A stretch of DNA of 59,394 nucleotides, counting the filler. It is 6 parts of 6 records of this genome, joined end to end, with 100 filler letters (N's around TTAATTAATTAA, not from the genome) between each part and the next. Parts side by side here need not be neighbours in the genome. Positions count along the whole stretch, not along the records: positions 24,456 to 43,848 come from SRR31156797_14151; 5 more parts are not named here. One strand, 5' to 3'. Position numbers and translations under genes: made by a program. The notes beneath the pieces are model-generated. The model was not told the origin of the DNA, made no database searches, and worked only from the letters and a program-made list of their open reading frames with translations. Positions 26,105 through 42,962 of this stretch are shown piece by piece (the first letter of the stretch is position 1; each line of letters begins with the position of its first letter).

Positions 26105-26124
26105 GATATTCTCCTTTCTCTCGC

Positions 26125-26179
26125 AAAAAAAAAGCCACGAAGGACTCTCCCCCCTATGGAGGATGTCGCCTTCGTGGCG
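26125..26179 (-). promoter_or_regulatory. Leader terminator element, copy 2 (CGCCACGAAGGCG...CCTTCGTGGC-U9)
   Basis: Perfect 10-bp stem ending about 20 nt before the start codon; promoter TTGACA(26295-26290)-N17-TACAAG upstream. Confidence 0.7.
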
Positions 26180-26521: not shown

Positions 26522-26577
26522 AGCCATGAAGGCATTTTTTTCTGCGGATGAAACCCGCGGCCGTCATGGCTTTTTTT
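26522..26577 (+). promoter_or_regulatory. Leader terminator element, copy 3 (AGCCATGAAGGC...GCCGTCATGGC-U7)
   Basis: 11 of 12 bp paired; lies between TTGACA(26321)-N17-TATTCG and the methyltransferase/NAS operon. Confidence 0.7.
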
Positions 26578-26661
26578 ATTTCAAGGCCGGAATCAGAGGG
26601 CCTCGTCCATGGCTGCCCATTTCTTTTGGAACGAAAAGCGTAAAACCGAGATGGTGTTTAA

Positions 26662-27405
26662 ATGGGACGGAAAAAGGGGTCTATCCAAAAATACTGGGAC
26701 TGGAGAAGCTGCACATATCCATATGATGAGGACAAATCGGAGCGGATTGCCGAAACCTGGGAAAATATTTTGGCCGGTCTGGTGGCGGGCACCCCGGGAA
26801 GACGGGCTATCGACATGGGAACGGGGACGGGCCAATTCGCCATCTATCTGGCGCGGCTGGGCTTTCAGGTCGCCGGCATCGATCTTTCGGAAAAAATGCT
26901 CCGGAAAGCGAGGGAGCATGCTGATGATTACAACCTGGATATCGAATTTCAACGGCAGGATGCTGAAAACCTTCGGTTCAAGGACAATACCTTCGATGTG
27001 GTCGTATCGAGGAACCTTCTGTGGACTCTCCCGAATCCCGGTAAGTCCCTTCGGGAATGGAGACGGATCATGAAACCTGATGGCGCGCTGGTTGTAAGCG
27101 ACGGCATGTGGATGAACTACACTTGGAAACGGGTTCACCATCTTGCGTTCAAGATTGTCAGAGGAATGCTCAATAACGGAAGCATGCTCTCCCTGCGGTT
27201 TTTCCTCGCCTATGCCGGTCTTCAAAAAAACCTCCCTTTTTATGAAGGAATAGGTCTTACCCAAATGCAAACACTTTTTCAAGTCGCCGGGTTCAGGGAA
27301 ATCAAATCACATGACACCACATATTTCGATACAAACCCTTATGGAAAGGATAGATTACAACAAAGAAATGATCTCCCTTTCTTTATTGTTCATGCCAGAA
27401 AATAA
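26662..27405 (+). CDS. Class I SAM-dependent methyltransferase
   Basis: IDMGTGTG, GIDLSEKML, DAENL, FDVVVSRNLLWTLP and MKPDG motifs. Confidence 0.9.
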   Translation: MGRKKGSIQKYWDWRSCTYPYDEDKSERIAETWENILAGLVAGTPGRRAIDMGTGTGQFAIYLARLGFQVAGIDLSEKMLRKAREHADDYNLDIEFQRQDAENLRFKDNTFDVVVSRNLLWTLPNPGKSLREWRRIMKPDGALVVSDGMWMNYTWKRVHHLAFKIVRGMLNNGSMLSLRFFLAYAGLQKNLPFYEGIGLTQMQTLFQVAGFREIKSHDTTYFDTNPYGKDRLQQRNDLPFFIVHARK

Positions 27406-27469
27406 GCATCATCGGCTAACCTCGTTTACAGGTTTTTTGGGAACACCCGTTTTTTCAAGGAGCAGCCCC

Positions 27470-28354
27470 ATGCATGATATCAACTATTTTCACGAGCACG
27501 AACTCAAAGATCATGATTTTCTGGGCTGTTGCAAGGACTGCCGCGCCAGTCTGAACATCATCAAACCCCACATTCTGGCATTTGCCGAGAAAATCCGAAA
27601 ATATACGCGTCGAATGCTGGAGGACCTCCCGCCCGACGACCTCTACCGCCTGTATCAGCTGTTGGACGATCTGGCCCACATGGATGCGGGGGCGCACCTG
27701 GCGGCCCTGATCCTGAAGGAAGAAGAGATCAAATCCGTGCTGCCGGTCATACGGACCTATTATGCCGCATTCTTCTCCATTCATGAGGAACGCTTGGCAA
27801 AGGCCGTGGCCGCCGCCGGCGATCCCTGGGAAAGCCTTTCGAAATTCCCCCTTTATCCACGGTATGAAACACTGATCAAAAACCAGATGGCAGCCATGCC
27901 CAGCCCTTTCCCCAACAAGCTGGCCTTCATCGGATGCGGTCCCGTTCCCATGAGCCTCATCCTCATGAACCGCCTATTCGGGATACGATCCCTGGGGTTT
28001 GAAACCTCCCGGGAAAGCGTTCGATCGGCAAGGGCCGTAATTCAAGCCCTGGGACTGGAAAGCCATATCGAGATCATTCACGGGGATGACCTCATGCTCA
28101 AGGGTGTGGGCTGTGATGCGGTCCTGGTGGCGGCACTGGCGGAACCCAAAGAGCGGATATTTCGAAACCTGAGGAAAATCCTGTCTGCAAAAAGCAACCA
28201 TGTCCCGGTTATTTACAGGACTTACACCGGCATGCGGGCCGTTTTGTATGAACCGGTCAGCGAATCGGATGTCAAAGGATTCAGGATTGTTCAAAAGATC
28301 TTTCCCACCGGCCGGGTCAACAACACCACCATCTTTGCCGAACTGGAGAATTGA
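27470..28354 (+). CDS. Nicotianamine synthase-like protein 1
   Basis: FPLYPRY, FIGCGPVPMS, VLVAALAEPK, YRTYTGMRAVLY and VNNT motifs; AAGGAG RBS before ATG 27470. Confidence 0.85.
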   Translation: MHDINYFHEHELKDHDFLGCCKDCRASLNIIKPHILAFAEKIRKYTRRMLEDLPPDDLYRLYQLLDDLAHMDAGAHLAALILKEEEIKSVLPVIRTYYAAFFSIHEERLAKAVAAAGDPWESLSKFPLYPRYETLIKNQMAAMPSPFPNKLAFIGCGPVPMSLILMNRLFGIRSLGFETSRESVRSARAVIQALGLESHIEIIHGDDLMLKGVGCDAVLVAALAEPKERIFRNLRKILSAKSNHVPVIYRTYTGMRAVLYEPVSESDVKGFRIVQKIFPTGRVNNTTIFAELEN

Positions 28355-29166
28355 TGGATACGACCTTTTCCACCATAAAAAATGAATTTCTCGGAATCGA
28401 TGCTTTGCTGAAGGATCTGACCCGGAATGAAATCGAGAAGGCGCCCGAGAGTATTTATCATACCCATCTGGCGGGACTCAACCGGCTGGCGGCAACCCCC
28501 GTGTCGGAGAAGGTCCTTGGAAGATTGATCTCCGACGAAACCTTGTCCCCGGCCATTGCGCGCATCTCCCGCCTCAAAAGGTTTATCGGGCTGAATATGG
28601 AAATCCAAGCCGCCCAATCCGTTGTTGCCGATTCCGATCCTTGGGCCAGAATCGAGCAATTCCCCTATTTTCCCAATTACGTGGCCCTGGCCCGCATGGA
28701 ATACGGGGGCGCCGGGCTTCGGCCCGAAGACCGGGTGGTTTTCCTGGGAAGCGGCCCCCTTCCCCTCAGTCTGGTCTGCCTTTCAAAGGGATACGGCGTT
28801 CAGGGCGTGGGAATTGAACGGGACGAACGGATGGCGGCCCTTTCAAGGGCGCTCATTGGTAAACTGGGGCTGGACCATGGCATTTCCGTGGTCCATGGAA
28901 ACCACTTCGACCTGCCCCTGAAAGGGCCCTGCAACCTCATTATGGTGGGGGCCGACGCTTCCCCCAAAGGCGCCATTTTCGCCCATTTGGCAACGGTGCT
29001 TGCATCCGGGCAAATGATTTCCTATCGGATCTATGAGAAGGGCTTGAGACGTCTTCTGGACGACCAGTCCATGTTTCAGCCGCCGCCGGAATTCGTGGAA
29101 CGGGCCCGCGTCCGTCCAACGCCCCCCGTGAACAACACCACGGTATTTGCGGTTAAAGCCGGTTAG
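28354..29166 (+). CDS. Nicotianamine synthase-like protein 2
   Basis: FPYFPNYVALARME, FLGSGPLPLS, YRIYEKGLRRLL and VNNT motifs; TGATG overlap. Confidence 0.85.
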   Translation: MDTTFSTIKNEFLGIDALLKDLTRNEIEKAPESIYHTHLAGLNRLAATPVSEKVLGRLISDETLSPAIARISRLKRFIGLNMEIQAAQSVVADSDPWARIEQFPYFPNYVALARMEYGGAGLRPEDRVVFLGSGPLPLSLVCLSKGYGVQGVGIERDERMAALSRALIGKLGLDHGISVVHGNHFDLPLKGPCNLIMVGADASPKGAIFAHLATVLASGQMISYRIYEKGLRRLLDDQSMFQPPPEFVERARVRPTPPVNNTTVFAVKAG

Positions 29167-29377
29167 GCGGGTTACATTTTTTGCCCTTTTGTGGACATCT
29201 TTTGTCCCCAGTTGCCCATCAGATAAATTTGAATGAAAGCAAAACATTGAAATAATTAAAAATTCCTTTCCCCAACCGGTTGCATGGTTTTTGCAACGTC
29301 AAAAGTAATTCCGGAAGCTGAAATTCGTGTTCGCCGTAACGCTCAAAAACATCTCTAAGGGATAGATGGGGGTATTC

Positions 29378-32020
29378 ATGAAAAACCGTCAAGACAATAT
29401 TCAGACCTTCACGGTTCGCACTATCCTGACTTGCTGCTTCTGTCTTCTGTTGCCCTCTCTTTCGGGTGCCGCTACCTTTCATGTACGATTGGACGGCGGC
29501 ACGTACCATCAATGTAATGGAACGGCCGATGCGCCGTATCCGGGGGAAGGCACGGGGAAAACCTGTGCCTGGTCGCACCCTTTCCAGGCATTGGATGACC
29601 GGGGAAACTGGCGTATCAAGGGGGGCGATTCGCTGATCATCCATTCGGGGCGTTACCGAATGGGCTTTGGCGCACCCAATACCGGATGGTGTGAAGCCGC
29701 AGGGTCCTATGATTGCCATCTCCCCCCCTTGCCGTCAGGGCCTGATGCTCAGCATCCCACGCGCATTCTGGGGAGTACCTGGGACCGGGGTTGTACGGAT
29801 CCCCCCCAATTATGGGGTTCCGAAAGAGCGTGGCAGATCATCAGCCTGGACGGGACGGACAACGCAATTGTCAGCTGCCTCGAGCTGACCGACCACTCCG
29901 GTTGCGTGGAACACCACTCCAATACCCAGGTAAAGTGCCAAAGAGACACACCACCCTATGGAGATTGGGCCGGTGCGGGTATTCATGCATCGGATTCATC
30001 CCATGTGTCGTTGAGCAACCTGAACATTCACGGCATGGCGGATCGGGGCATATATGCCGGGCGTATTTCGGATTGGCGCGTGGATAATGTTCGGATCGCC
30101 GGAAATGGATGGGCCGGTTGGGATGGGGATATACCGGGGGATGATGCCAATACCGGCAATATACATTTCAGGAACTGGCTTGTGGAATGGAACGGTTGTG
30201 CGGAAAGCTACCCCGAGGGGCTGCCCAACAACTGCTGGGCACAGACCGCCGGGGGGTACGGCGACGGGGTCGGCACCGGGTCCACCGGAGGAGACTGGAT
30301 CATCGAGGATTCCATTTTTCGGTACAATACTTCCGACGGGCTTGACCTGCTTTATGCCCGCTTTGACTCCCGCATCCACATGAAACGGGTCCGGGCTTAC
30401 GGAAATGCGGGGAACCAGATCAAGGTCAATGGGCCCACCGCCATTGAAAACGCACTTTTGATCGGCAACTGCGGCTATTTTCAGGGAAAAGATTTCACTT
30501 ATCATGTGGATCCCTGCCGCGCCGGAGGCGCTGCCGTCTCCCTCAATATGAGGCGTGGAAACAGCGTTTCACTGATTAATTCAACTATTTCCGGGGAAGG
30601 GGATTGTCTCGGAACCATTGAATGCTCGGACTCCATGGGATGTGATGGATCCGAATCGGTCATCATTCAAAACAACATATTCAGAGGAAACAAGGAATTT
30701 CTCTCCCCAACGGACATCACCTGCTATCTTTGGTGGGATCAAGAGGGTTTTTACGACGCACAAATCGATTACAATGTGGTTTTCGGCGCAAAAATCGGTA
30801 CTTTCGGGCTGTCAGATAATGATATCAACAAGGACCCGCTCTTCATGGATGCGGATTTGAGCACTTTTAAGGGTCGTCTCCGCAAAAATTCCCCGGCCCT
30901 CAAAAGCGGACTCCCCGCAGGCGGGCTGAATGGTTTGGTGCCCACCGAAGACCTGGTAAATACTCCGAGACCCATGGGGAGTGCCGTGGATCGCGGTGCC
31001 TATGAAAAAAGGGTCGGGCCCCTTATCATCGATCACACCTGTACGGACATTTCCCAAATCCCCTCCTACTGGATTGAACAGGCCAAACAATCGACCCTGC
31101 ATTACGCCCATACCTCCCATGGCGGGCAGATCTGCCAGGGTGCTGAAAATCTTGAAGGGTTCGATGCAACCTATGGCTTTACAAGGCGCATCAGCGGCAC
31201 CGAAGGGCTTCCCCCGTCGGAAACCCCACCGGCCCTCCGCATCTACGACGGCAACCCGCCCCATACCTACATCACTCCGGAACGTTACTGGGATTCCGAC
31301 GACGGAAGGGAGAGCACCCGATCCGTTGCCCATACGGGACATTACGACTTTTCCATGTGGGCATGGTGCGGCCAGGTCTCCGGCGCCACACAGGCCTACA
31401 TTCAGCGCTATCTGGATACCATGGACCGGTTCGAGACGGAATACCCCGGTATGGGCTTTATCCATATGACCGGCCATCTGGACGGGAGCGGTTCAACGGG
31501 AACGCTGCATCAACGAAACGAACAGATCCGGGCCTACTGCCGGGCCAACAATAAAATCCTTTTCGATTTCGCCGATATTGAGCGTTATAACCCGGACGGT
31601 ACGGATTTCCTGGATCTTTCCGCGGACGATGAATGTAACCATGAGCATGGAAACTGGGCCGATGAGTGGTGTGCAAAAAACCCGGACTCCCCCTTGTGCA
31701 GGGCGTGCAGCTGCAATCATTCGAAACCCCTCAACTGCAACCTGAAGGCAAGGGCCTTTTGGTGGATGATGGCGCGCCTGGCGGGGTGGACCCCCTCCCC
31801 CGCCCCATGTCCCGATTTTCCCGGCCCTTCGCCGGTCATCCGGGATGTGGATTTTCCCGGGCAAGCCCATTGCACCTATTCGGATAGCATTTCCATTACC
31901 ATCGGTCCCAATGTCCATATCCCGTCGGATGCCACGGCTATTTTCCAAGCGCCCATCATCATCATAAAGAGCCCCTTTCACCCGGAGAAAGGGGCGACCG
32001 TTCGATTTGTGGCGAAATAG
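29378..32020 (+). CDS. Secreted Cys-rich multidomain protein: parallel beta-helix, choice-of-anchor-Q-like segment, second alpha/beta domain, short C-terminal beta domain
   Basis: Signal peptide; Asn/Gly-rich coils (FRYNTSDGLDLLY, GNAGNQIK); DPLF...SPA...DRGAYE; IIDHTCTD..YAHTSHGGQ. Confidence 0.7.
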   Translation: MKNRQDNIQTFTVRTILTCCFCLLLPSLSGAATFHVRLDGGTYHQCNGTADAPYPGEGTGKTCAWSHPFQALDDRGNWRIKGGDSLIIHSGRYRMGFGAPNTGWCEAAGSYDCHLPPLPSGPDAQHPTRILGSTWDRGCTDPPQLWGSERAWQIISLDGTDNAIVSCLELTDHSGCVEHHSNTQVKCQRDTPPYGDWAGAGIHASDSSHVSLSNLNIHGMADRGIYAGRISDWRVDNVRIAGNGWAGWDGDIPGDDANTGNIHFRNWLVEWNGCAESYPEGLPNNCWAQTAGGYGDGVGTGSTGGDWIIEDSIFRYNTSDGLDLLYARFDSRIHMKRVRAYGNAGNQIKVNGPTAIENALLIGNCGYFQGKDFTYHVDPCRAGGAAVSLNMRRGNSVSLINSTISGEGDCLGTIECSDSMGCDGSESVIIQNNIFRGNKEFLSPTDITCYLWWDQEGFYDAQIDYNVVFGAKIGTFGLSDNDINKDPLFMDADLSTFKGRLRKNSPALKSGLPAGGLNGLVPTEDLVNTPRPMGSAVDRGAYEKRVGPLIIDHTCTDISQIPSYWIEQAKQSTLHYAHTSHGGQICQGAENLEGFDATYGFTRRISGTEGLPPSETPPALRIYDGNPPHTYITPERYWDSDDGRESTRSVAHTGHYDFSMWAWCGQVSGATQAYIQRYLDTMDRFETEYPGMGFIHMTGHLDGSGSTGTLHQRNEQIRAYCRANNKILFDFADIERYNPDGTDFLDLSADDECNHEHGNWADEWCAKNPDSPLCRACSCNHSKPLNCNLKARAFWWMMARLAGWTPSPAPCPDFPGPSPVIRDVDFPGQAHCTYSDSISITIGPNVHIPSDATAIFQAPIIIIKSPFHPEKGATVRFVAK

Positions 32021-32239
32021 TCCGTTTCAGATGAATCGCCCATGCCGCCACCCCTTTTCCCAACGCGTGAAAGCCGTTTCCAGGGGGATAAATTTCAAAA
32101 CAAGAATTACCGGAATCCGTATTTCAAGCTTGACACCCTGCTCGGCGCTGTTGTATAGATCGCGCCAGCATAATGCGTAATACGAAATTGCGCAGTACAA
32201 ACAGAGCAGAACCTTAATATAGACATATTTGTAATTTTA

Positions 32240-32294
32240 AAGCCAGGAAGGCTTATCCGGAATGAATTTCGGAAGGCTTCCCGGCTTTTTTTTT
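32240..32294 (+). promoter_or_regulatory. Leader terminator element, copy 4 (AAGCCAGGAAGGCTT...AGGCTTCCCGGC-U9)
   Basis: Lies between TTGACA(32130)-N18-TATAGA and the TonB receptor start. Confidence 0.7.
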
Positions 32295-32378
32295 GGCTGA
32301 ACACTACCTGAAAACCAAAACCGTCCGGCAGTAGCGGGCACCGGGTATCTATTGTGAGGTCAAGGAGGAGAGAGAACA

Positions 32379-34427
32379 ATGAAGAATGTGAAATACCTGA
32401 TATTATGTTTATTGATCGGCAACCTGCTTTTTTTTTCACCGGCCTGGGGAGATGAAACCTCGGATGGGGAAACAATCTCCGGAAAGATGGACACCGAAAA
32501 GTCAAAACCGGTGCAAATGGATGAAATAGTGGTTACCGCCACCAAGTATGAATCCTCCACCAGGGACATACCGTCAAACGTGACGGTGGTCACGGGGGAA
32601 GAGATCCGGGCACAATATCTGCCGGACAACGACATCGGGGACGCCTTGCGCAACATATCGGGCCTCACCACCCGCCGCGCCTATGCGCCCTTTCCCGCCT
32701 ACATCAACATTCGCGGGGTGGGGAACAAGGGGACGGTTATCCTGGTAAACGGCATCCCCACCAACTGGGAAATCACCCAGGCCATTCCCCCCGGGAACAT
32801 CGAGCGGGTGGAGATCGTGAGAGGACCCGCATCGGCCCTTTACGGGGCCAATGCCAGCGGCGGGGTGATCAACATCATTACCAAGGAAGGGGGAGAAGGG
32901 ATTAACGGCAGCGTCAGCGGGGGGTACGGCACTTTCAATACCTGGCGGGTCCGGGCCGCAACCGACGGCACCGTGGATAAATTTCATTATTCCTTTGCCG
33001 GTTACAAGGATAAATCCGACGGAACCAATGTGGTCAAGAACACGGTGTTGCCCAGCGTCACCATGATCGGGGACTGTTCCTATGACAAATGGGCAGGGTC
33101 GCTCACCGCCGCCTACGACGTGAACGAAAAAGGGAAAATCTCCTTTCTTTTCAATTATTTTAAGGACGAATACACACGGGGCCGACCCAATGTGGGAGGG
33201 GACTGGGACCGTTATTTTACCAGCCTGATTTACGACCAGGCTTTTGGAGATATGTTTCTGTTCAAGGGGTATGTGGGGTTTCGGTATGATGATCTGCTCC
33301 ACCGTTACGACAAGGGGAATCAGAATTACGAACTCAGACAGACCCGGAATACCGATTATCGGGAAATCCCCATGGAGCTTCAATTGACGGCCCACCTGGG
33401 CTTTGGCAATGCGCTCACGGGCGGTTTTTTTTACAATTACCAGGATACGGATCAGGATTATCACAATCCCGCGGGCGCTTTGATCAGCCACAACCGCTAC
33501 AAGGTACGCACCGTGGCCGGGTACCTTCAGGACGTCTGGAAACCCATGGAAAAACTGGCCATCACGGCGGGCCTCCGTTACGACAACTGGCGAAATTACG
33601 ACAATACCTTTACGAAATACGTGGATGAACATCCGGGAGATCGAACCGACGACAACTGGAGCCCTAAAATCGGCGCCAAATACAACTTCACGGACCGCCT
33701 GGGCCTGTGGGCCAATTATGCGGTGGGATTTAACCCCCCGACCCCCGAGCAGCTCTACGACGACCGGACCAGCGGTGGAAATCCGCGGGAACCGAACCCG
33801 AACCTGCAACCGGAAACCACCCGAAGCTGGGAGCTGGGGGTTGAGAACTGGTTTACGGACAGTCTCAGCGCCAAGATGGTGGGATTTTACAACTATACGG
33901 ACGACAAGATTATTTCCTGGTTCAATGACGAGAATATCTGGATTAACAAAAACATCGGCCGAAGCAAATCTTACGGTGTGGAACTGGATATGTTTTTTCA
34001 GCCCACGGAAAACTGGATCGTCAATGCCAACTATACCTGGAACCCGGCTAAAATCGACAGCAATCCGTCAAACCCCGGGCAGGAAGGGAACGAACTCCCC
34101 TTTTCACCCAAGCACAAGGCCAACCTGAGCGTTACCTACCAGTGGGTCAGAAATTTTGAACTGAGCGGTTTTTTTCGATACCTGAGCAAACAGCAGACCA
34201 ACGAAGCCAATACGGAATATACCAAAGGGGGCGAAGCGCGTTACATGCCGTCCTCTTTTGTGGTGGATTTCAAGGGCGTCAAGCATTTTCCCGTGGCGTG
34301 GGGGGCGCTTAAAAATATCGATGTGGCCCTGGCCGTGGACAATGTTTTTAACGCCAATTACCGGACCTTATACATCTATGAAGATCCGGGACGGACCTTT
34401 TTCGGGGAAGTCAAGTTTTTCTTTTAA
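32379..34427 (+). CDS. TonB-dependent receptor
   Basis: TonB box DEIVVTA; IERVEIVRGPASALYG..GGVINIITK; NPNLQPE; terminal Phe; AGGAGG RBS. Confidence 0.95.
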   Translation: MKNVKYLILCLLIGNLLFFSPAWGDETSDGETISGKMDTEKSKPVQMDEIVVTATKYESSTRDIPSNVTVVTGEEIRAQYLPDNDIGDALRNISGLTTRRAYAPFPAYINIRGVGNKGTVILVNGIPTNWEITQAIPPGNIERVEIVRGPASALYGANASGGVINIITKEGGEGINGSVSGGYGTFNTWRVRAATDGTVDKFHYSFAGYKDKSDGTNVVKNTVLPSVTMIGDCSYDKWAGSLTAAYDVNEKGKISFLFNYFKDEYTRGRPNVGGDWDRYFTSLIYDQAFGDMFLFKGYVGFRYDDLLHRYDKGNQNYELRQTRNTDYREIPMELQLTAHLGFGNALTGGFFYNYQDTDQDYHNPAGALISHNRYKVRTVAGYLQDVWKPMEKLAITAGLRYDNWRNYDNTFTKYVDEHPGDRTDDNWSPKIGAKYNFTDRLGLWANYAVGFNPPTPEQLYDDRTSGGNPREPNPNLQPETTRSWELGVENWFTDSLSAKMVGFYNYTDDKIISWFNDENIWINKNIGRSKSYGVELDMFFQPTENWIVNANYTWNPAKIDSNPSNPGQEGNELPFSPKHKANLSVTYQWVRNFELSGFFRYLSKQQTNEANTEYTKGGEARYMPSSFVVDFKGVKHFPVAWGALKNIDVALAVDNVFNANYRTLYIYEDPGRTFFGEVKFFF

Positions 34428-34435
34428 CGGCTGCC

Positions 34436-36142
34436 ATGTCCATTCATCTCCACAAACGCACCCGGCCCGGCCGGGAGAAGGGTGCGGATCGGGTCCGCCC
34501 CAACAAGGGATGCGGCTTTCTTAAGGGATCTTTGCTGCTGATGTTGTTTTTGCTCATGGCCCCGGGGTGTTCAAAGGAGACCGAATCGAAAACACCCCCC
34601 CCTTCGGAACAGGTACTTCGAATCGGAACCGCCATGAAAATCAAACAGGCCAATCCGGTGGCGGATTATTATTACAATATCCTGGCCATGGTCATGACCC
34701 ATGATTCCCTGGTGCGGTTTGATGAAAAACTGAATCCGATTCCCCAACTGGCCCGAAAATTCGCATCCGATGAGTCTGCCAAAATCTGGACCTTTGAGCT
34801 GACCCCGGATGCCAAGTGGCATGATGGACGGCCGGTAACGGCCGACGATGTGGTCTTTACGTTTCGATACATGGCCCGAAACCATGGATCGGGAGCCTGG
34901 GTGGGCCATCTCATCGAAAATATTGAAGCCCGGGAAAATTGCGTCATTTTCCGGCTGAAAAGACCGTGCAGCAGATTTCTGCTGAATGCCGGTTTCGTGG
35001 TCCGGATTCTGCCGCGCCATATCTGGGAAAATATTTCCCATCCACGCCGGACCAAGGATACGGCTGTCACCGTGGGATGCGGCCCCTACCGGTTTGCGGG
35101 TTTTGACCGTAGCGCGGGGACCATCCGTTTCCATGTCAATGCCGACTACCACGGTTTTGTCCCCCAAGCGGACCGGGTCGATTTTTGCACCTACGGGACC
35201 ATGGATCTGCTGGCCCTGGCCCTGATCAAGGGGAGGGTGGATCTTTACTACCAGTACGCTTCCGGCTTGCCGGTTCCTTATGTGGATAAGCTCAAGGCCG
35301 AACCGGGTCTGGATTGCATGGAAGCGGCATCCATGGGAATTCCGGCGGTGCTGGGTTTCAACCTTTCCCGTCCATTGGTAAAATCCATCAAAGTCCGTCG
35401 GGCCGTTGCCCTGGCCGTGGATTATGCCCATATGAACAACTGTCTCATGAAAGGGAAAGGAAGGATTCCTTCCCCGGGACTGGTACCGCCGTCCTTTCCG
35501 GTTCATATGCATATGGCGCCATGGGTTCAAGATCTTGATCAAAGCCGCTCTCTTCTGGAATCCGAAGGGTGGGTGGATACAAACGGGGACGGTCTTTTGA
35601 ACACGCCCCAAGGCGAAAACGTCCAACTGACCCTTCTGGTTCGATCCGATTTATGGGGAGAAGCACAGATGGTAAAGCTGCTGGCCCGTGATTTTGAACG
35701 GGTGGGCATCGGACTGAAAGTTCGATCGGCGGATCTCTCCACCTATCTGGCATTTTTAAAGGGAGGAGACTACGACCTGGTGCTCTTTCGCACCACCCCC
35801 TGGGGCATGGTGATGCATGCGGGGTATGGCAGCGGATATTTTGACGCGAAAACATCCGGGCATCTCAACATGTGCCGTCTGAAGGATCCCGGATTTTCAA
35901 CCCTGTGCGACCGAATCTTGAGCACTCGCGATCCCCGAACCTTGAAAACCCTTTACACGAAACTGCAAAAATATTATGCGGAACACCTCCCCGCCGTGGC
36001 CCTGTGCTGGGGCCGAAGCTTCTTCCCTTACTCGGGAAAATGGCAAGGGTTTCAGATCAACCCCCTTGAAGGGGGGTTGGCAAACCGATTTTCCTGGCGG
36101 AGACTCAAGCTTTTAAATAGGGTTAAACCGGAGGGACCTTAG
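34436..36142 (+). CDS. Family 5 ABC substrate-binding lipoprotein (Nik/Opp/Cnt type)
   Basis: Lipobox APGC; WHDGRPVTADDVVFT and GCGPY motifs. Confidence 0.9.
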   Translation: MSIHLHKRTRPGREKGADRVRPNKGCGFLKGSLLLMLFLLMAPGCSKETESKTPPPSEQVLRIGTAMKIKQANPVADYYYNILAMVMTHDSLVRFDEKLNPIPQLARKFASDESAKIWTFELTPDAKWHDGRPVTADDVVFTFRYMARNHGSGAWVGHLIENIEARENCVIFRLKRPCSRFLLNAGFVVRILPRHIWENISHPRRTKDTAVTVGCGPYRFAGFDRSAGTIRFHVNADYHGFVPQADRVDFCTYGTMDLLALALIKGRVDLYYQYASGLPVPYVDKLKAEPGLDCMEAASMGIPAVLGFNLSRPLVKSIKVRRAVALAVDYAHMNNCLMKGKGRIPSPGLVPPSFPVHMHMAPWVQDLDQSRSLLESEGWVDTNGDGLLNTPQGENVQLTLLVRSDLWGEAQMVKLLARDFERVGIGLKVRSADLSTYLAFLKGGDYDLVLFRTTPWGMVMHAGYGSGYFDAKTSGHLNMCRLKDPGFSTLCDRILSTRDPRTLKTLYTKLQKYYAEHLPAVALCWGRSFFPYSGKWQGFQINPLEGGLANRFSWRRLKLLNRVKPEGP

Positions 36143-36145
36143 AGA

Positions 36146-37132
36146 TTGGCGCTTTTACGACATAAAATAGGGCGCTACGGGCTTTGCATTTTCTTTGTTT
36201 TAAGCCTGAATTTTTTCATCGTACACCTGCTTCCCGGTGATCCGTTGGTTCATCTGGTGGGAGAAGAGACCTATTTTCAGCTTCAGGGCGGAAATCCCGA
36301 GGCCCTTTCGGAACTTCGCGCCCAATACGGCTTGGACAGGCCTCTTTATGAACGGTTTTTCGTCTCCATGACCCATATTCTTTCCTTTCGTCTGGGTTGG
36401 TCCTCTCATTACGGAAAACCCGTGGTGGAAATTCTGTGGTATCGCCTCAAGTGGACCCTGTTGCTCCTCTTTCCGGCCATGGTTCTATCCGCGGTTTTCG
36501 GCCTGCTCCTGGGGTGTATTTGCGGTCGACCCGGAAAAAACACGCCGGATGGTTTCATGACGCCCCTTTGGCTTACGGTCTATTCGGTTCCCGCCTACTG
36601 CCTGGCTTTTCTGCTGTTGCTCCTTTTCGCCCATCTGGGAGATTTTTTCCCCCTGGGAGGCATGCGGGAAGTGTCCCGGACGGGGAATGCGGTTTTCGGA
36701 GATGTGTTGCGACATATGGTCCTCCCCTTGATGGTTCTTGTGCTGCATACCACGGCCTACCTCTATATGATCATGCGAAGCACCATACGTCAGGCTTTCG
36801 GAGCGGCCCATGTGTTGACGGCCGCGTCCAAGGGGCTGACGCCCGGGCGGGTGTTGATGCGCCATGTCCTTTTAAATGCCCTTCCCCCTTACATTGCGGC
36901 CGTGGCCATCAATTTCGGTTTTATTGCGGGGGGGGCGCTTTTGGTGGAGGTGGTCTTTTCCTGGCAGGGAATGGGGTCCCTCATGTACGAGGCGGTGTTG
37001 AGCAGGGATTATCCCATTCTATCGGGCTGCTTCCTCTTCCTCTCCTTTTCGGTCATAGGCTTTAACATCATGGCGGATCTTTTGTGCGGTTTCATCGATC
37101 CACGGATGAGGGATGATGCCGCGATTATGTAA
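36146..37132 (+). CDS. ABC permease (NikB/OppB type)
   Basis: LPGDP, YGLDRPL, VEVVFSWQGMG and RDYP motifs. Confidence 0.9.
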   Translation: MALLRHKIGRYGLCIFFVLSLNFFIVHLLPGDPLVHLVGEETYFQLQGGNPEALSELRAQYGLDRPLYERFFVSMTHILSFRLGWSSHYGKPVVEILWYRLKWTLLLLFPAMVLSAVFGLLLGCICGRPGKNTPDGFMTPLWLTVYSVPAYCLAFLLLLLFAHLGDFFPLGGMREVSRTGNAVFGDVLRHMVLPLMVLVLHTTAYLYMIMRSTIRQAFGAAHVLTAASKGLTPGRVLMRHVLLNALPPYIAAVAINFGFIAGGALLVEVVFSWQGMGSLMYEAVLSRDYPILSGCFLFLSFSVIGFNIMADLLCGFIDPRMRDDAAIM

Positions 37133-38915
37133 AGGGCGGGTCATATGGGCCCCTTCCGCATGCCTGTGTCTGCTTCTCGCGGCGGCCGCATTTCCAGGGC
37201 TCCTGGCCCCTTTTTCCCCCGGAGAGCTGGCGTTACCCTACATGCCGCCCGCCGGTCGGCACCTTCTGGGAACGAACCACATCGGGCAGGACCTGTTCAG
37301 CCAACTCATCTATTCGGCCCGCATGACCCTGGCCGTATCCCTTGGTGCCTCTTTTCTGGCCACGGGCATGGGAACCCTTGTGGGGTTGACGGCGGGTTAT
37401 AGGAGAGGGCGGTGGGACGGGTGGCTCATGCGCATAACCGATATATTCCTGCTCCTGCCGGGGTTACCCCTGATCATTCTACTGGCGGCCCACATGGATT
37501 CAGGAATGACCGGTATTGCCATGGTCATCGGCATGACCGCGTGGCCCGGCACGGCCCGGGTGATCCGCGCCAATGTGCTTCAGATAAGCCGGCGGAACTT
37601 CATTCGAAGCGCCGAGGTCATGGGGGCCGGGCCTCTGTATATCATGTTCGCCCACATCCTGCCCAATATCTTTCATGTGGTCCTGGCCAAAACCGTTTTA
37701 GCGGCGGCATCGGCCATGGTGACGGAAGCCGGCGTCAGTTTTCTGGGATTGGGGGATCCCCAGTACAAAAGCTGGGGCGCCATGTTGCACGAGGCTTTTA
37801 CCAACGGCGGTCTGTTGAACGGATGTTACGGGTGGTATCTCCCCCCCATCATCTGTATTTCCATGACGGTTCTCTGTTTGACCCTGGCGGGACGGAAATT
37901 GATGGGCGATGATGATCAAACCCTTCTCCCCGGACGCGCCGTGGGTCATGGTCCGCTGGGGTCCCTGAAACCCCGAAACGACCCATGCCTAGAGATAACG
38001 GATTTGTCCGTTGATTTCGCCAATCCCCACGGAACCCCCGTTCGGGCCATGGATCGCGTGAACCTGACGGTGAACCGGGGCCGGCATCTGGCGGTCATCG
38101 GGGAAACGGGCAGCGGAAAAAGCGTGCTGTTGCTGGCCCTTATGGGCTTGCTCCCTGAAAACGGTTCAGCCACGGGGGCGATCCGTTTTTGTGGACAAAA
38201 TCTTTTGGACCTTTCCGAAAGGGCATTTTGCAGGCTTCGGGGTCGATATGTGGCTTACGTTCCCCAAGGGGCCGGTCAGGCCCTGAACCCTTTGATTCGG
38301 GTGGGAGGGCAAGTGGCGGAGCCCCTTCGAGTTCATGAACGGATGTCCCGAAAGGAGGCCCTTCAAAAGGCCGTGGAGATGCTGGATCGAATGGGGATTC
38401 CCGATGCCCACGACCGAAGCCGGGAATATCCCCATCAATACAGCGGCGGCATGATCCAGCGGGCTTTAGGGGCCATGGGACTGATTTCGGGGGCGTCTCT
38501 CATACTTCTGGATGAGCCCACCAAAGGGTTGGATTCCGAAAACAAAGAGGCGATTTTTAATCTTCTTGAAGAATATGCGGAGGAAACCTTTGTGATGGTG
38601 ACCCATGACCTGCTTTTTGCAAAGCGGTTTTCCCACGAAGTGGCGGTTATGCTGAATGCTCGAATCGTGGAAAAGGCGCCTTCGCGCGTTTTTTTTGAAA
38701 CCCCCCTGCACCCTTATGCCAGGGCCCTGCTGAAGGCCCAGCCGAGCCATGGCATGCAGGTGGAAACCCCCTTTCATTCCGAACCATTCTCTGCATGGGG
38801 CTGCCCCTTTGCCGACCGCTGTCCACAGGCGGTTGGAAGATGCGGTCACATGCCTCCCATGATCAATATGGGCAAACGTTCGGTGCGGTGCTGGCTTTAT
38901 GATCCTGAAAACTGA
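37113..38915 (+). CDS. Fused ABC permease and ATPase (OppC-OppD type)
   Basis: HLLGT..GQD and HILPN, then GETGSGKS, YSGGM, DEPT, HPY and the Cys-rich C-terminus in one frame. Confidence 0.88.
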   Translation: MMPRLCKGRVIWAPSACLCLLLAAAAFPGLLAPFSPGELALPYMPPAGRHLLGTNHIGQDLFSQLIYSARMTLAVSLGASFLATGMGTLVGLTAGYRRGRWDGWLMRITDIFLLLPGLPLIILLAAHMDSGMTGIAMVIGMTAWPGTARVIRANVLQISRRNFIRSAEVMGAGPLYIMFAHILPNIFHVVLAKTVLAAASAMVTEAGVSFLGLGDPQYKSWGAMLHEAFTNGGLLNGCYGWYLPPIICISMTVLCLTLAGRKLMGDDDQTLLPGRAVGHGPLGSLKPRNDPCLEITDLSVDFANPHGTPVRAMDRVNLTVNRGRHLAVIGETGSGKSVLLLALMGLLPENGSATGAIRFCGQNLLDLSERAFCRLRGRYVAYVPQGAGQALNPLIRVGGQVAEPLRVHERMSRKEALQKAVEMLDRMGIPDAHDRSREYPHQYSGGMIQRALGAMGLISGASLILLDEPTKGLDSENKEAIFNLLEEYAEETFVMVTHDLLFAKRFSHEVAVMLNARIVEKAPSRVFFETPLHPYARALLKAQPSHGMQVETPFHSEPFSAWGCPFADRCPQAVGRCGHMPPMINMGKRSVRCWLYDPEN

Positions 38916-39585
38916 AAATCTGCATAAAAGCTTTAATACCTACCGGCGGCATGCCGAAGGACGTTTTGTGCTCAATGGGGTCCGCTTTCTCCTGGATGCG
39001 GGAGAAACCATCGGAATTTCAGGAAAAAGCGGCGCGGGCAAGAGCACCCTGGCCCTCATTTTGTGCGGTCTCGAAAAACCCGACCGGGGGGAGGTGTGGT
39101 TGGGGGAAACTTCCGTATGGCCCCGAGCCGGACGGCGGGGGCGTCAACACATTCATCGCCGCCTCCAGATCCTGTGGCAGCATCCCGAAACCGCTTTCAA
39201 CCCCCGCTGGAAACTGGCGAGAAGTCTGCTGGAACCCTTGCGCATTCATGGTTTGCCCGCTCCTTCGAATATTTTGAAAGGGCCATTGGATGAGCTTCAT
39301 TTGCCCCCCGATGTTCTAAAACGATACCCCCTTCAGTTGAGTGGAGGGGAGTTACAGCGACTGGCCCTGGCCAGGGCCCTCATGCTGAAACCGGAGGTTC
39401 TCATCCTGGATGAACCCACCAGCATGCTCGATGTCCTGACCCAGGCCCGGATCATTCGGCTTCTTCAAGGCATTCAGCGAAAAACCGGTTTGTCCTATGT
39501 ATTTATCAGCCACGACAGGGACTTGGTGGACCGGTTCAGTCACCGGGCCTTTCTTTTGAGTGAAGGATTGTTGAAACCTTTGTGA
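38899..39585 (+). CDS. ABC ATPase (NikE/OppF type)
   Basis: GKSGAGKS, LSGGELQR, LDEPTSMLD and ISHD motifs. Confidence 0.92.
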   Translation: MILKTENLHKSFNTYRRHAEGRFVLNGVRFLLDAGETIGISGKSGAGKSTLALILCGLEKPDRGEVWLGETSVWPRAGRRGRQHIHRRLQILWQHPETAFNPRWKLARSLLEPLRIHGLPAPSNILKGPLDELHLPPDVLKRYPLQLSGGELQRLALARALMLKPEVLILDEPTSMLDVLTQARIIRLLQGIQRKTGLSYVFISHDRDLVDRFSHRAFLLSEGLLKPL

Positions 39586-39594
39586 GATTCAAAA

Positions 39595-40452
39595 ATGACC
39601 ATGAATAATGGAAAAGGCCGCCACTTGAAATTGCATAATAGCGCCGGGCGGGGCCCCCGGGCCAAGGCATGGGCCTCTCAAATGGGCGGCTGGCATGGGG
39701 AAAGAACCGGAACCGGAGGGCCGGTCGACTCCGGAAGTTTCTGGAACGGCTTTGATCTCTGGGAGACCTATGAGCCCTACACGCGCTATCCGGGAAAATT
39801 GATGGCGCCCATTTTAAACTGCATCACGCCGCAAACAACGGTGCTGGACGTGGGTGCGGGCACCGGGGCCCTCACCCTGCCCATGGCCGCCCACGCCCGC
39901 TCGGTAACGGCGGTTGAACCTTCTTCTGCTCAATGTGCGCGTCTCCTGAAAAACGCCGAACAGCTGGGGTTTGCCAACCTGAAAGTATTGGAAAATCGCT
40001 GGGAAGACGTGCGGGTTCAAGCATTGGAAACCCATGATGTGGTGACCGCCGGCTATTGCCTCTTTATGCCGGAGATTGAACCGGTCCTTTGGAAAATGGA
40101 TCAACTGGCGCGCCGCCGTATTTTCATGGTGCACCTGGCGGATCATGATCTTCAGGAACCCATCCGGCGGATTTTGGGCCGACGGACGGCCCTTCCCGAC
40201 CACCGGATGTTGCATAATGTTCTAACGGAATTGGGATGGAAGGTTCAAAGCACGATTTTCACCCGGAATTTTGAACTGCCCCTGCGCCTTCAAATGGACA
40301 TGTTCCGCTACGCACAACATTTCAGCGACGGGGAATTGAACGAACTGGAAAGTTACCTTCAAAAAAGTGGGCGGGTCCGCATGGGGCAGGGAATTTCATG
40401 GGTGAAACGGCAATACCGCGATGCCCTCATAAGCGTCAAAAAAAATGATTAA
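39595..40452 (+). CDS. Class I SAM-dependent methyltransferase
   Basis: VLDVGAGTGAL, AVEPS, RWED and HDVV motifs. Confidence 0.85.
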   Translation: MTMNNGKGRHLKLHNSAGRGPRAKAWASQMGGWHGERTGTGGPVDSGSFWNGFDLWETYEPYTRYPGKLMAPILNCITPQTTVLDVGAGTGALTLPMAAHARSVTAVEPSSAQCARLLKNAEQLGFANLKVLENRWEDVRVQALETHDVVTAGYCLFMPEIEPVLWKMDQLARRRIFMVHLADHDLQEPIRRILGRRTALPDHRMLHNVLTELGWKVQSTIFTRNFELPLRLQMDMFRYAQHFSDGELNELESYLQKSGRVRMGQGISWVKRQYRDALISVKKND

Positions 40453-40520
40453 GGCGCAGCCAAATGGGATCGGAAACGGGCGTTAACAGAACCCTATGAT
40501 TGGAGCCTGCGGGACTATTG

Positions 40521-42962
40521 TTACGGGATGACGGCGCCGGCCAGAACCTCGCGAAGAACGGCCCGGATGTCATCCACCCGATACGGTTTGGTCAGTTTGG
40601 CGCAAAACCCGTTGGATCCGGGGTCGGCCATGACCGGATCGGTGGCGTAGCCGGACGAAACTATGGCCCTGACGCCGGGGTCCATCTCCTTAAGGCGGGC
40701 CAAGGTTTCCTTTCCTCCCATGCCTCCCGGAATGGTAAGGTCCAAGATCACGGCATCGAAACCCCCGCCATTCCGCCTCGCCCGCTCATAAGCTTCAATC
40801 GCCTCTGCTCCGTCGGCAACCGCGCACACCGTGTAGCCCAACGCAAGGAGGATCGACTCCATTACGGAGCGTACCGATGCCTCGTCATCCACAACGAGGA
40901 TATGTCCACCTCCCGATACGGCCCTTTTCCCAAAGTCCGCTTGCGCCTTCACATCCTCGTAAGACGCGGGAAGATAAACCGTAAATGTGGTTCCGACCCG
41001 CACCTGTGAATGCACCCCGATGTGCCCCCCGTGCTTTTGGATTATGGAATAACAACTGAACAATCCCAGCCCGCTGCCCTTCTCTTTGGTGGTGAAGAAA
41101 GGATCGAATATCTTGAATAGACGCTCCTCCGGAATACCGATGCCGGAATCGGAGACGGCAATCTTCACGTAATTCGCCGGCGGCAACGGAAGATCGTCAT
41201 CATGGGCCACCGTTACATTCTCGGCCCCGATACGGATCACGCCGCCCTTCGGCATTGCCTGATCGGCATTGATCACCAGATTATTGATCACCTGGCTGAT
41301 TTGTCCCGGGTCCGCCTTCACGTTGAACAAATCGTGGGAAATCCGAAATTCGCACTTGGCCCCGGAACCCCGTATGGCAAACCCGGCCGAATCTCGAATA
41401 ATATCTTCGATTGAGGTCGTCTCAAACAAGGGGGCCCCGCCTTTGGAGAACGTCAGCAGTTGCTGTGTGAGATCTTTCGCACGCAAGGCGGCTTTTTCGG
41501 CTTTGCGGATCAATTGCCCAATCTCGGTCCCCGCATCGGCATGGATACCGGCCAAGGAGATATTGCCGAGGATCGCAGCAAGAAGGTTATTGAAATCATG
41601 GGCGATTCCTCCGGCCAGCGTGCCGACGGATTCCAGTTTTTCAGCCTTGGCCAACTCCTCTTCCATGCGCTTTCGATCGGTAATATCCGTAATCATTGCG
41701 AAAGCGCCAAGCACGCTCCCGTCCCCGTCGAACATGGGCCTGGCATTGACAATCGTGAACAGTGTACTCCCGTCTTTTCGCAGCAAACTGAGATCATACT
41801 GGTCCCCGAGACCCCGCAGGCGCCTGGAAAACTGATTCTTGAAGCGGATCGCATTCTCCTCATCCAGAAAATCGCCGACCTTACGCCCCATCATTTCATG
41901 GACGGAATACCCCAGCATATGCGCCAGGCGCCCGTTGACGAATGAATAGCGCCCATGGAGATCAACAATTGAAATACCTTCTCCGGCCGTTTCAATGAGC
42001 ATTCGATACCGCTCCTCGCTTTGGCGGAGGGCCTCGGTTCTCCGGCGCACCTGCCCCTTGAGGGATCGGTTCCACACGGCGACCGCTGCCGCAATCAGCA
42101 GCAAAGCGGCCAACCCCGCGGAAACAAACAACATCCGTTTCCGCCACACAGTGTCGCGGGGCGCACCGAGATGGACCCATTTTCGATATATCCCGTCCCG
42201 GGTCTCGGGCGATATTCGTGTCAGAGCCTTATCAAGGATGCTTCTCAATTCCGGCCAGTCTTTTCGGCAGGCAATTCCCAGATCATACACATAGCCGGTC
42301 TCTCCAGCCGCTCTGAGATTGGTTATGCCTTCCTGATCGATAAAGTAGGAGGCCACCCCCATATGTGCAATGAGGGCATCCGTCATCCCGAAGGAAACTT
42401 TTCGTAATGCCGTCTTCACATCGGAGACCGGATCCAACAGGATACCGGGATAATCCCTGTGAACCCATTTTGTGGCCGCGAAACCCGCCACACAGGAAAC
42501 CGTCATCCCCTCAAGCATATCAAGGGTGACCGTACCTTTTACGCCGTTATGTACGATAATCACCACAGGGCAGTGCAGATAGGGTTTGGTGAAATTCATG
42601 AACCGGGAACGCTCCACGGTATTCATTGCCGACGGCTGCATATCCAGTCGGCGGGCCTTCAGCTTATCCCAAAGCCCCGTCCAGGAATCCTCAGGCGTCA
42701 CCGTAAACCTTATGCCGAGTTGCTCTTCAATCAGAGCAATGTAGTCCGCTGAGATACCGAGATATTCGCCGTTATTACCCGAAAATTCGATGGGGGGATA
42801 GCGCGTATCAAAGCCCATTCGGATATCCGGATGTTCAGCCAGCCATTGACGTTCGCTTTGGGTGAGGAAGTCCGTCGGCTCAACTCCCAACGATTGTGCG
42901 CCGGGGAGCAGCAACAGCATGATGGAAAGGAGAAAACCCGATAGGGATCTGATACTATTCAT
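40521..42962 (-). CDS. Hybrid sensor histidine kinase (periplasmic binding domain, PAS, HisKA, HATPase, receiver)
   Basis: YPPIEF, GGIAHDFNNLL, NLVINA, FDPFFTTK..GSGLGL, LVVDDE and ILDL motifs. Confidence 0.93.
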   Translation of the reverse strand: MNSIRSLSGFLLSIMLLLLPGAQSLGVEPTDFLTQSERQWLAEHPDIRMGFDTRYPPIEFSGNNGEYLGISADYIALIEEQLGIRFTVTPEDSWTGLWDKLKARRLDMQPSAMNTVERSRFMNFTKPYLHCPVVIIVHNGVKGTVTLDMLEGMTVSCVAGFAATKWVHRDYPGILLDPVSDVKTALRKVSFGMTDALIAHMGVASYFIDQEGITNLRAAGETGYVYDLGIACRKDWPELRSILDKALTRISPETRDGIYRKWVHLGAPRDTVWRKRMLFVSAGLAALLLIAAAVAVWNRSLKGQVRRRTEALRQSEERYRMLIETAGEGISIVDLHGRYSFVNGRLAHMLGYSVHEMMGRKVGDFLDEENAIRFKNQFSRRLRGLGDQYDLSLLRKDGSTLFTIVNARPMFDGDGSVLGAFAMITDITDRKRMEEELAKAEKLESVGTLAGGIAHDFNNLLAAILGNISLAGIHADAGTEIGQLIRKAEKAALRAKDLTQQLLTFSKGGAPLFETTSIEDIIRDSAGFAIRGSGAKCEFRISHDLFNVKADPGQISQVINNLVINADQAMPKGGVIRIGAENVTVAHDDDLPLPPANYVKIAVSDSGIGIPEERLFKIFDPFFTTKEKGSGLGLFSCYSIIQKHGGHIGVHSQVRVGTTFTVYLPASYEDVKAQADFGKRAVSGGGHILVVDDEASVRSVMESILLALGYTVCAVADGAEAIEAYERARRNGGGFDAVILDLTIPGGMGGKETLARLKEMDPGVRAIVSSGYATDPVMADPGSNGFCAKLTKPYRVDDIRAVLREVLAGAVIP

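Follow-up and report, generated by a model that had tools for sequence, protein, structure and literature searches.

The window analysed here is a stretch of 59,394 nucleotides, filler included, in which six parts of six records are joined end to end. Between 24.6 and 40.5 kb, within a segment of 50–56% G+C in the part taken from SRR31156797_14151 (positions 24,456 to 43,848), it carries two neighbouring genes of the nicotianamine synthase (NAS) family, NAS1 and NAS2, together with methyltransferase, receptor and transporter genes. An earlier note on this DNA had proposed a new metallophore system here, composed of a methyltransferase, the two NAS genes, a TonB-dependent receptor, a family-5 ATP-binding cassette (ABC) importer and a second methyltransferase, with a CooC-like ATPase encoded divergently upstream. 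All of these were recovered about where they had been placed when 40 open reading frames (ORFs) of the window were scored with Pfam and NCBIfam models, with Pfam scores far above the cut-offs, although two genes had been passed over, one for a flavin-reductase-like protein and one for a beta-helix protein. The genes of the region are:

24663–25475, minus strand: CooC-like P-loop ATPase (nickel-insertion accessory type), Pfam CbiA 55.6 bits, best solved relative CooC1 (3KJE)
25499–26104 (ORF to 26332), minus strand: flavin-reductase-like protein, Flavin_Reduct 75 bits
26662–27405, plus strand: MT1, class I S-adenosylmethionine (SAM) methyltransferase of the UbiE/Methyltransf_11 type, Methyltransf_11 97 bits
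27470–28354 (long ORF 27311–28354), plus strand: NAS1, MtNAS-like aminobutyryl transferase, PF03059 83 bits
28354–29166 (ORF 28351–29166), plus strand: NAS2, divergent NAS paralogue, PF03059 87.1 bits
29366–32020, plus strand: secreted right-handed beta-helix protein, 884 aa, Beta_helix 27.2 bits
32379–34427, plus strand: TonB-dependent receptor, plug and barrel, TIGR01783 214.6 bits against a cut-off of 223.5
34436–36142, plus strand: family-5 solute-binding protein (SBP5), SBP_bac_5 188 bits
36146–37132, plus strand: ABC permease (Opp/Nik B type), Pfam/NCBIfam
37113–38915, plus strand: fused permease (C type) and ATPase (D type), BPD_transp_1, ABC_tran and oligo_HPY
38899–39585, plus strand: ABC ATPase (NikE/OppF-like), NikE 181 bits, below cut-offs of 332–354
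39595–40452, plus strand: MT2, class I methyltransferase, Methyltransf_25 38.5 bits

Judged by their sequences, NAS1 and NAS2 are true members of the NAS family, as had been proposed. Both pass the PF03059 cut-off of 27.1 bits and align with the thermonicotianamine synthase MtNAS (3FPE), NAS1 with 156.8 bits over about 230 residues and NAS2 with 88.8 bits, and both possess the Glu and Tyr matching E81 and Y107 of MtNAS. All 139 family members taken from the related loci described below have the two residues (54/54 NAS1, 62/62 bacterial NAS2-type and 23/23 archaeal proteins), and mutation of the equivalent Glu and Tyr of AtNAS1 (E77/Y106) abolishes activity (PMC10248798). The superfamily is small, with 692 proteins at E ≤ 1e-3 and 30 at E ≤ 1e-30 in a library of 1.84 billion representatives. 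A giant fusion protein of 2670 aa, P0157, contains a NAS-like domain at residues 635–870 (107 bits to NAS1).

The two paralogues share 28% identity, in agreement with their description as clearly divergent. They had also been called overlapping together with the first methyltransferase gene, which holds for the pair, since the TGA stop of NAS1 and the ATG start of NAS2 overlap by one base, but not for MT1: NAS1 most likely occupies 27470–28354, clear of MT1, because residue 54 of the long ORF is where all close homologues begin. An N-terminal HxHE motif is present in 49 of 54 NAS1 proteins, and GCCxxC in 51 of 54 compared with 0 of 85 proteins on the NAS2 side. The HxHE...GCCxxC stretch of the window NAS1 (residues 1–30, window 27470–27560) looks like a metal-binding motif and may be a metal-sensing or regulatory site.

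The two genes constitute a conserved module. NAS2 has 398 homologues in a large protein collection, which come from metagenome-assembled genomes of Deltaproteobacteria and are labelled either "methyltransferase" or "nicotianamine synthase family protein". When genomes were scanned, one for each species, 105 relatives turned up, and 79 loci were retained. According to record titles, the bacterial loci belong to Desulfatiglandales (including strain NaphS2), to Desulfobacterales (Desulfosarcina, Desulfonema magnum, Desulfospira and Desulfobacter curvatus) and to a few contigs labelled as other phyla, and the 14 archaeal loci belong to ANME-1 (Methanophagales), Ca. Methanocomedens and other Methanosarcinales. 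NaphS2, Desulfosarcina variabilis and Desulfonema magnum are cultured carriers. In a midpoint-rooted FastTree phylogeny of 139 proteins from these loci the gene order is fixed, the upstream protein falling in the NAS1 clade and the downstream one in the NAS2 clade in 52 of 52 two-ORF bacterial loci as well as in the window. All 23 archaeal copies are located on the NAS2 side of the tree, with two or three paralogues per locus, and one archaeal-labelled contig (L062) has a bacterial-type NAS1 match by tblastn. NAS matches were confined to a single locus in each of the five carrier genomes searched, two matches per genome and four in G003. The pair is rare: among 201 sampled genomes of Desulfobulbales 3 had it, and for the phylum the figure was 7 in a sample of 401.

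The ORFs of all loci were clustered and the clusters then named, and the frequencies of neighbours are given for a well-flanked set, the 26 bacterial loci in which 6 kb or more of sequence is available to either side. CbiM was found in 15 of these loci, NikK/DUF4198 in 13, NikL in 12, a pyridoxal phosphate (PLP) enzyme in 14 and MT1 in 6, with an uptake module of any kind in 18. The energy-coupling factor (ECF) importer of the NikK/NikL type, consisting of DUF4198/NikK, CbiM, NikL, CbiQ and CbiO, is adjacent to the pair in 15 of the 26 loci, and its NikL reaches 185 bits, where the cut-off is 100. For DUF4198 proteins, periplasmic metal capture has recently been described (PMC12663993). In three Desulfatiglandales loci (L002, L005 and L009) the NikK and CbiM genes of this importer are separated by a gene for an OprB-like porin (cluster 20). 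The family-5 binding protein, MT2 and the beta-helix protein are each present in 0 of the 26 loci.

The PLP enzyme lies directly 3′ of the pair in 35 bacterial loci and consists of Ala_racemase_N and D-ser_dehydrat domains, with D-threonine aldolase (4V15, 127.7 bits) and D-3-hydroxyaspartate aldolase as its best solved relatives. A homologue of MT1 stands next to the pair in 12 loci by ORF clustering, four of them archaeal, and in 10 of 65 bacterial and 4 of 14 archaeal loci by tblastn, which bears out the suggested association of a methyltransferase with the pair. Other recurrent neighbours are FecCD/Peripla_BP_2 importers and TonB-dependent receptors; the latter are of several kinds (among others in L008, L040, L049 and L055) and are often paired with a second DUF4198 gene. 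A gene for a metal-dependent repressor of the DtxR/IdeR family (cluster 30) is located near the pair in L025, L054 and L055, 3′ of the NAS and PLP genes. CfbA, the nickelochelatase that acts on sirohydrochlorin in F430 synthesis, is encoded between or beside the NAS copies of four Methanosarcinales loci (152.7 bits against a cut-off of 120).

NikR boxes accompany the pair in two Desulfobulbales genomes. The delta-proteobacterial NikR operator has been given as GTGTTAC-N13/14-GTAACAC or its reverse (PMC545781, Table 4). The same table reports for Desulfotalea psychrophila an uncharacterised cluster of two genes with two NikR sites, a candidate for the NAS pair. A perfect reversed box lies 174 nt 5′ of NAS1 in L031, and three units are found in G156. 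The first is a perfect box followed by nikR (NikR_C 121.8 bits) and CbiM-NikL-NikK-CbiQ-CbiO; the second is a box with one mismatch 124 nt before a TonB receptor gene, which is followed by DUF4198, a 149-aa ORF, NAS1 and NAS2, the ORFs from receptor to NAS2 overlapping or nearly touching; and in the third an opposite-strand MT1 faces a symmetric box with two mismatches, and a 200-aa ORF is followed by ExbB-ExbD-TonB. Boxes with up to two mismatches are not in excess in the loci (10 compared with 10–21 in shuffles). Weight is given to the perfect, well-placed sites alone. Enrichment of k-mers mostly recovered the region of the NAS1 start codon and a clade-specific direct repeat, and no exact shared palindromes were found upstream of the operons. 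In one Desulfobacteraceae subgroup (L037, L041, L048, L049, L053 and L055) a ATCCGTGTAA-like direct repeat of about 9 nt stands in three tandem copies 40–130 nt 5′ of NAS1 and may be a site for another regulator. The Methanophagales locus L079 contains two nearly identical NikR-like inverted repeats with two mismatches (7747–7793 and 12574–12621), about 120 nt 5′ of a NAS copy (7966–8742) and about 220 nt 5′ of a NAS fragment (12845–13186), respectively.

The window shares with L006, L007 and L014 a conserved leader 5′ of MT1, the most striking part of which is the hairpin AGCCAnGAAGG...CCTTCnTGGCT followed by a T-run. A second element, hairpin A, is defined by a stem of at least 5 bp and the loop A(C/U)GAA (AYGAA). 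The window contains the following copies of the two:

26522–26575, plus strand: terminator-like hairpin AGCCAUGAAGGC...GCCGUCAUGGCU with U-run, 87 nt before MT1
32241–32290, plus strand: terminator-like hairpin with U-run, 89 nt before the receptor gene, 136-nt leader fold z = -3.66
26129–26179, minus strand: terminator-like hairpin with U-run, 25 nt before the likely flavin-reductase start, -33.4 kcal/mol, z = -4.10
26362–26386, plus strand: hairpin A, 7-bp stem, loop AUGAA, on the 5′ side of the MT1-NAS leader
32172–32196, plus strand: hairpin A, 8-bp stem, loop ACGAA, in the TonB-receptor leader

Two of the three terminator-like hairpins are located in 5′ leaders, as there is no gene upstream on the same strand. 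The flavin-reductase start is likely M77 at 26104, since the homologues are about 203 aa long (203 aa in NaphS2); homologues with 75–76% identity come after CbiO of the nickel ECF operon in L002 and L005. The divergent CooC-like ATPase has CooC1 as its nearest solved relative and a CxC motif aligned with that of CooC1, which we take to have a role in Ni binding.

About 1.3 Mb of loci contain 58 distinct terminator-hairpin sites, 44 of them with a T-run on one side only, and 32 of these 44 fold better on the T-run strand, as expected for RNA. In NaphS2 (contig C147), L089 and L100 (genome G004), the orthologous receptor gene likewise has the receptor-leader hairpin in front of it. Counted genome-wide with up to two mismatches, the motif is rare and clustered. 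NaphS2 (6.6 Mb) has eight distinct sites, five of which lie on the 100-kb contig with the NAS genes, at the divergent NikK-NAS1 region, the MT1-PLP operon, a split TonB receptor, the end of the CbiO-flavin-reductase operon and an ABC-2 exporter (in that genome only); the others are located before the receptor-SBP5-...-MT2 block, before a receptor adjoining a tetrapyrrole methylase and in a contig-edge duplicate. G004 (9.6 Mb) has nine sites, four of them 15–90 kb from the NAS pair, and the examined ones precede the receptor-SBP5 block, a CobN-like chelatase facing DUF3450-ExbB, and a receptor-DUF4198 pair.

Hairpin A stands 36–145 nt 5′ of 13 of 66 strand-specific terminator sites, compared with about 0.5 expected from the background rate and with 2 downstream and 4 antisense in the controls. 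It is also present in the leaders of L006 and L007, in the ECF leaders of L005 and L009, in the MT1-PLP leader of NaphS2 and in the receptor leader of L089. Its stems differ in sequence and keep their pairing, with G-U pairs, on a count made with sequences picked for pairing. None of the 4227 families of Rfam 15 matched at the gathering score, with only chance-level matches at E up to 5, and a simple promoter and terminator scan, whose loop limit misses long hairpins, gave no more than shuffles did. As only two hairpins are shared and there is no common aptamer-like core, a protein or RNA partner is suggested rather than a small-molecule riboswitch. We take the NAS, importer and flavin-reductase-CooC operons of the window as co-regulated through a common attenuation mechanism, because all three carry the terminator-like hairpin and the NAS and receptor operons also carry hairpin A.

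The receptor, the ABC importer and MT2 form a separable module of their own. Searching metagenomes with the receptor gave 13 loci. Its orthologues are 54–86% identical, and the receptor, SBP5, permease, permease/ATPase, ATPase and MT2 genes stand together in L087, L089 and L091. An orthologous receptor-SBP5-permease-ATPase-MT2 block, 61–82% identical to the window proteins, is present on contig C147 of NaphS2, and there the block and the NAS pair are on different contigs; G004 (whose locus L044 is titled Desulfosarcina variabilis) has a more distant copy of the block about 75 kb from its NAS pair. MT2 belongs to the transporter block, because the block occurs without NAS and barely co-occurs with it. 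A role for it as a biosynthetic enzyme was rejected, as MT2 travels with the importer (L087, L089, L091 and C147) and is absent from NAS loci.

The importer had also been named Nik-type, which is to be read as a family label and not as a specificity, because the NikA/B/E models remain far below their cut-offs (nikA 112 against 393 bits, nikB 150.6 against 447, nikE 181 against 332.55), the CntA model gives the solute-binding protein 86 against 800, and AppA and oligopeptide binders (about 91 bits) outscore NikA (about 70 bits) as its best solved relatives. The beta-helix gene is located between NAS2 and the receptor gene; its protein has 841 homologues in several phyla with varied C-terminal domains, and no homologue was found in any NAS or transporter locus examined. 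As a member of a large widespread family absent from all related loci, it was rejected as a pathway component and is probably not part of the system. A hybrid histidine kinase gene with an N-terminal SBP_bac_3 sensor domain (40521–42962, minus strand) abuts MT2, and in L089 several hybrid kinases are encoded upstream of the receptor block.

Starting from the observed family membership, catalytic residues, fixed pairing and synteny, NikR boxes and shared leader motifs, we infer the product, its metal, the division of labour, secretion and the cognate importer as follows. The pair probably makes a nickel-binding small molecule, because in relatives it almost always adjoins nickel-uptake genes, and the reading we moderately favour is a CntM-less pathway with two NAS enzymes for a chelator of nickel (less likely of cobalt) in sulfidic anaerobes. 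Each NAS would move the 3-amino-3-carboxypropyl group of SAM onto an amine with release of methylthioadenosine, the two paralogues, which may work in sequence or as the heterodimer that the earlier note had suggested, would serve different steps or acceptors, and MT1 would methylate the product; in many relatives the PLP enzyme of the D-threonine-aldolase/D-3-hydroxyaspartate-aldolase family could supply or tailor a D-amino-acid starter. The product would be an aminocarboxypropyl chelator resembling nicotianamine or thermonicotianamine, for which an opine dehydrogenase is not needed. Its metal complex would enter through a TonB-dependent receptor and, in the window, be handed on to the family-5 ABC importer; nickel uptake in the majority of relatives would be served instead by the periplasmic DUF4198/NikK protein and a NikMLQO-type ECF importer. 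Nickel supply in an anaerobe, which the earlier note had in mind alongside cobalt, is supported by the context in relatives (NikK/NikL ECF importers, NikR boxes and CfbA).

A broader form of this proposal, possible though doubtful in our opinion, is an undescribed nickelophore pathway common to sulfate-reducing Desulfobacterota and to the methane-oxidising archaea beside them (ANME-1, ANME-2 and other Methanosarcinales), with two NAS-type enzymes and, in Desulfatiglandales and Desulfobacterales, a new two-hairpin leader as its switch. If this were true, nickel would be kept available in sulfidic sediment for F430, carbon monoxide dehydrogenase/acetyl-CoA synthase (CODH/ACS) and hydrogenases, and the leader would define a nickel-acquisition regulon of biosynthesis genes, TonB receptors and both ECF and ABC importers.

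Several observations weigh against the reading favoured here. No exporter was found among the neighbour clusters of at least two loci or among the 40 window ORFs, as the earlier note had remarked for the window, and the PLP enzyme is absent from the window. The window also holds neither a NikR gene nor an ECF importer, and its intergenic DNA has no NikR box even with three mismatches allowed, the CooC-like ATPase being its sole nickel-flavoured gene. In L087, L089 and L091 no NAS gene lies within the flanks of the receptor block, and the 26 well-flanked bacterial NAS loci yielded no homologue of SBP5. The receptor orthologue (E ≤ 1e-100) was found in 4 genomes of the 401-genome sample and NAS1 in 7, with both only in G002, on which the sample, with its many incomplete genomes and two candidates scored per genome, was centred. 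The solute-binding protein is, on its profile scores, not diagnostic for nickel or a metallophore. As regards the leader, the covariation count for hairpin A is biased, because the sequences were selected for pairing, the terminator-like hairpin is possibly a lineage-typical terminator family rather than a regulator, and the hairpins are also found ahead of the CobN-like chelatase and the receptor by the tetrapyrrole methylase, which would suit cobalt or corrinoids. The mosaic composition of the window counts against the reading too, though both breaks fall outside the cluster. ECF importers for Ni and Co presumably take the bare ion, which fits an intracellular and a secreted ligand alike.

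The product could instead stay inside the cell as a nickel or cobalt buffer or hand-over ligand, like nicotianamine in plants, with the metal reaching CfbA, CooC-type and other insertases through it after import by the ECF or ABC system, and with the TonB receptor and ABC importer belonging to the same nickel regulon and importing something else. We consider this rather unlikely, but it would explain why no exporter recurs beside the pair and why an ECF importer is what most often adjoins it (15 of 26 loci), and it agrees with the archaea, which have no outer membrane and whose genes adjoin CfbA, with the divergent CooC-like ATPase of the window and with the receptor-ABC block found without NAS. 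It is harder to reconcile with the G156 pair, set in a tight gene string with a TonB receptor and DUF4198 behind a NikR box and near ExbBD-TonB, with the assorted receptors near the pair in loci such as L008, L040, L049 and L055, and with the leader motifs common to receptor operons; in known systems, moreover, the exporter gene often lies at another locus or export falls to a general pump. That cobalt or corrinoid supply rather than nickel is served, with BtuB-like receptors and a chelator or regulon tuned to cobalt, appears improbable. The cobalt names of the CbiM, CbiQ and CbiO models, the CobN-like chelatase and the receptor by a tetrapyrrole methylase within the hairpin regulon, the FecCD/Peripla_BP_2 importers near NAS and the insertion of cobalt by CfbA-type chelatases in vitro, as reported, speak for it. 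Against it stand the absence of a cobalamin riboswitch from the window and from 15 loci, the NikR boxes of G156 and L031 together with the nikR gene of G156, the archaeal neighbour that passes the CfbA equivalog cut-off, and the ECF systems themselves, which hold NikK and NikL, both assigned to nickel transport (PMC545781), and not CbiN. Least probable of all, and very much so, is a metabolite that has nothing to do with metals, for instance a polyamine-like solute or a group that tailors another molecule, and that would stand beside transport genes by accident. In its favour, the aminocarboxypropyl group transferred by the family is a generic one and 8 of the 26 well-flanked bacterial loci have no uptake module, but the Ni/Co ECF importer in 15 of 26 loci, the NikR boxes, the CfbA adjacency and the leaders shared with receptor operons are at odds with it, and the characterised products of the NAS family that are named in the papers cited for it are all metal chelators or their precursors (PMC10248798, PMC7438024).

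The nickel chelator pathway that we favour would matter for several reasons. NAS-type metallophores would extend from plants and pathogens to anaerobic sediment communities, and the division of labour between two enzymes would be a new variant of NAS chemistry. Nickel demand in such organisms is large, owing to methyl-coenzyme M reductase (F430), CODH/ACS and hydrogenases, and sulfide sequesters nickel; a dedicated nicotianamine-like chelator common to sulfate reducers and methane-oxidising archaea would give the acquisition of nickel by anaerobes under sulfide a testable genetic handle. The shared leader hairpins may in turn be a new regulatory RNA element marking a metal-uptake regulon.

The G+C content of the window as a whole is mosaic, with 29–43% up to about 18.4 kb, 41–57% from 18.4 to 43.8 kb, 36% from 43.8 to 52 kb and 47–50% thereafter, the shift at about 43.8 kb being abrupt. 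The low-GC parts hold a SusC/SusD pair and a GH3 enzyme, which we take to be hallmarks of Bacteroidota. The mosaicism could be due to chimeric assembly or to a transferred island. A 189-aa SBP_bac_3 fragment (17347–17916, minus strand) lies in low-GC DNA just before the break at about 18.4 kb, the SusC-like ORF at 43998 is without most of the plug domain, and an aminotransferase fragment is located at 10783–11310. No tRNA gene was found in the window.

In the literature no description of tandem NAS genes in these organisms was found, nor any paper linking NAS genes to Desulfobacterota, ANME, CfbA/F430 or Nik ECF systems; the 2020 review "The ancient roots of nicotianamine", which reportedly contains a survey of cntL neighbourhoods, may mention such loci. 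Among described systems, the leaders resemble those of riboswitches and attenuators, for example the cobalamin riboswitch, in placing a terminator hairpin in the 5′ leader of receptor, importer and biosynthesis operons, and differ from them in having no Rfam match and no common aptamer-like core. With the NikR regulon and the NikKMLQO ECF system (PMC545781) the relatives share the position of the pair beside nikK, nikL, cbiM, cbiQ and cbiO and behind GTAACAC-N13-GTGTTAC boxes, whereas the window is without an ECF importer and without a NikR box; neither the NAS pair nor the receptor-DUF4198 pair is named in the regulon in the part of PMC545781 available.

The Cnt systems of staphylopine, pseudopaline and yersinopine likewise have a NAS-family gene beside family-5 ABC or TonB-receptor import genes, and their D-amino-acid starter enzyme has an analogue in the PLP enzyme of the relatives. 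Unlike them, the locus studied here has two NAS genes, with no CntM and no exporter seen in the window, and the context is nickel in free-living anaerobes as opposed to zinc in pathogens (PMC7438024). As the earlier note had observed, neither CntM (Staph_opine_DH, PF10100) nor a CntK-like (DapF-type) racemase is present among the 40 window ORFs; CntM is also absent from the recurrent neighbour clusters, and a search of five carrier genomes gave no CntM match, the positive control being likewise silent. The two NAS proteins score 22.6 and 29.7 bits with the CntL equivalog NF033601 (cut-off 350). Since CntM, a CntL equivalog, an exporter and CntA are all missing, the locus is not a member of the Cnt group, though similar in working.

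The closest likeness in fold and chemistry is to MtNAS of Methanothermobacter (3FPE/3O31), which belongs to the same fold family, whose Glu, Tyr and Gly-rich SAM motif are kept in NAS1 and NAS2, and whose pathway also needs no opine dehydrogenase. The details of its successive transfers were reportedly given by Dreyfus in 2009. MtNAS is a lone enzyme that performs two successive transfers onto glutamate (PMC10248798), whereas here the paralogues are always paired, NAS1 has the additional N-terminal HxHE...GCCxxC stretch, and a methyltransferase and often a PLP enzyme of the D-amino-acid type accompany the pair.

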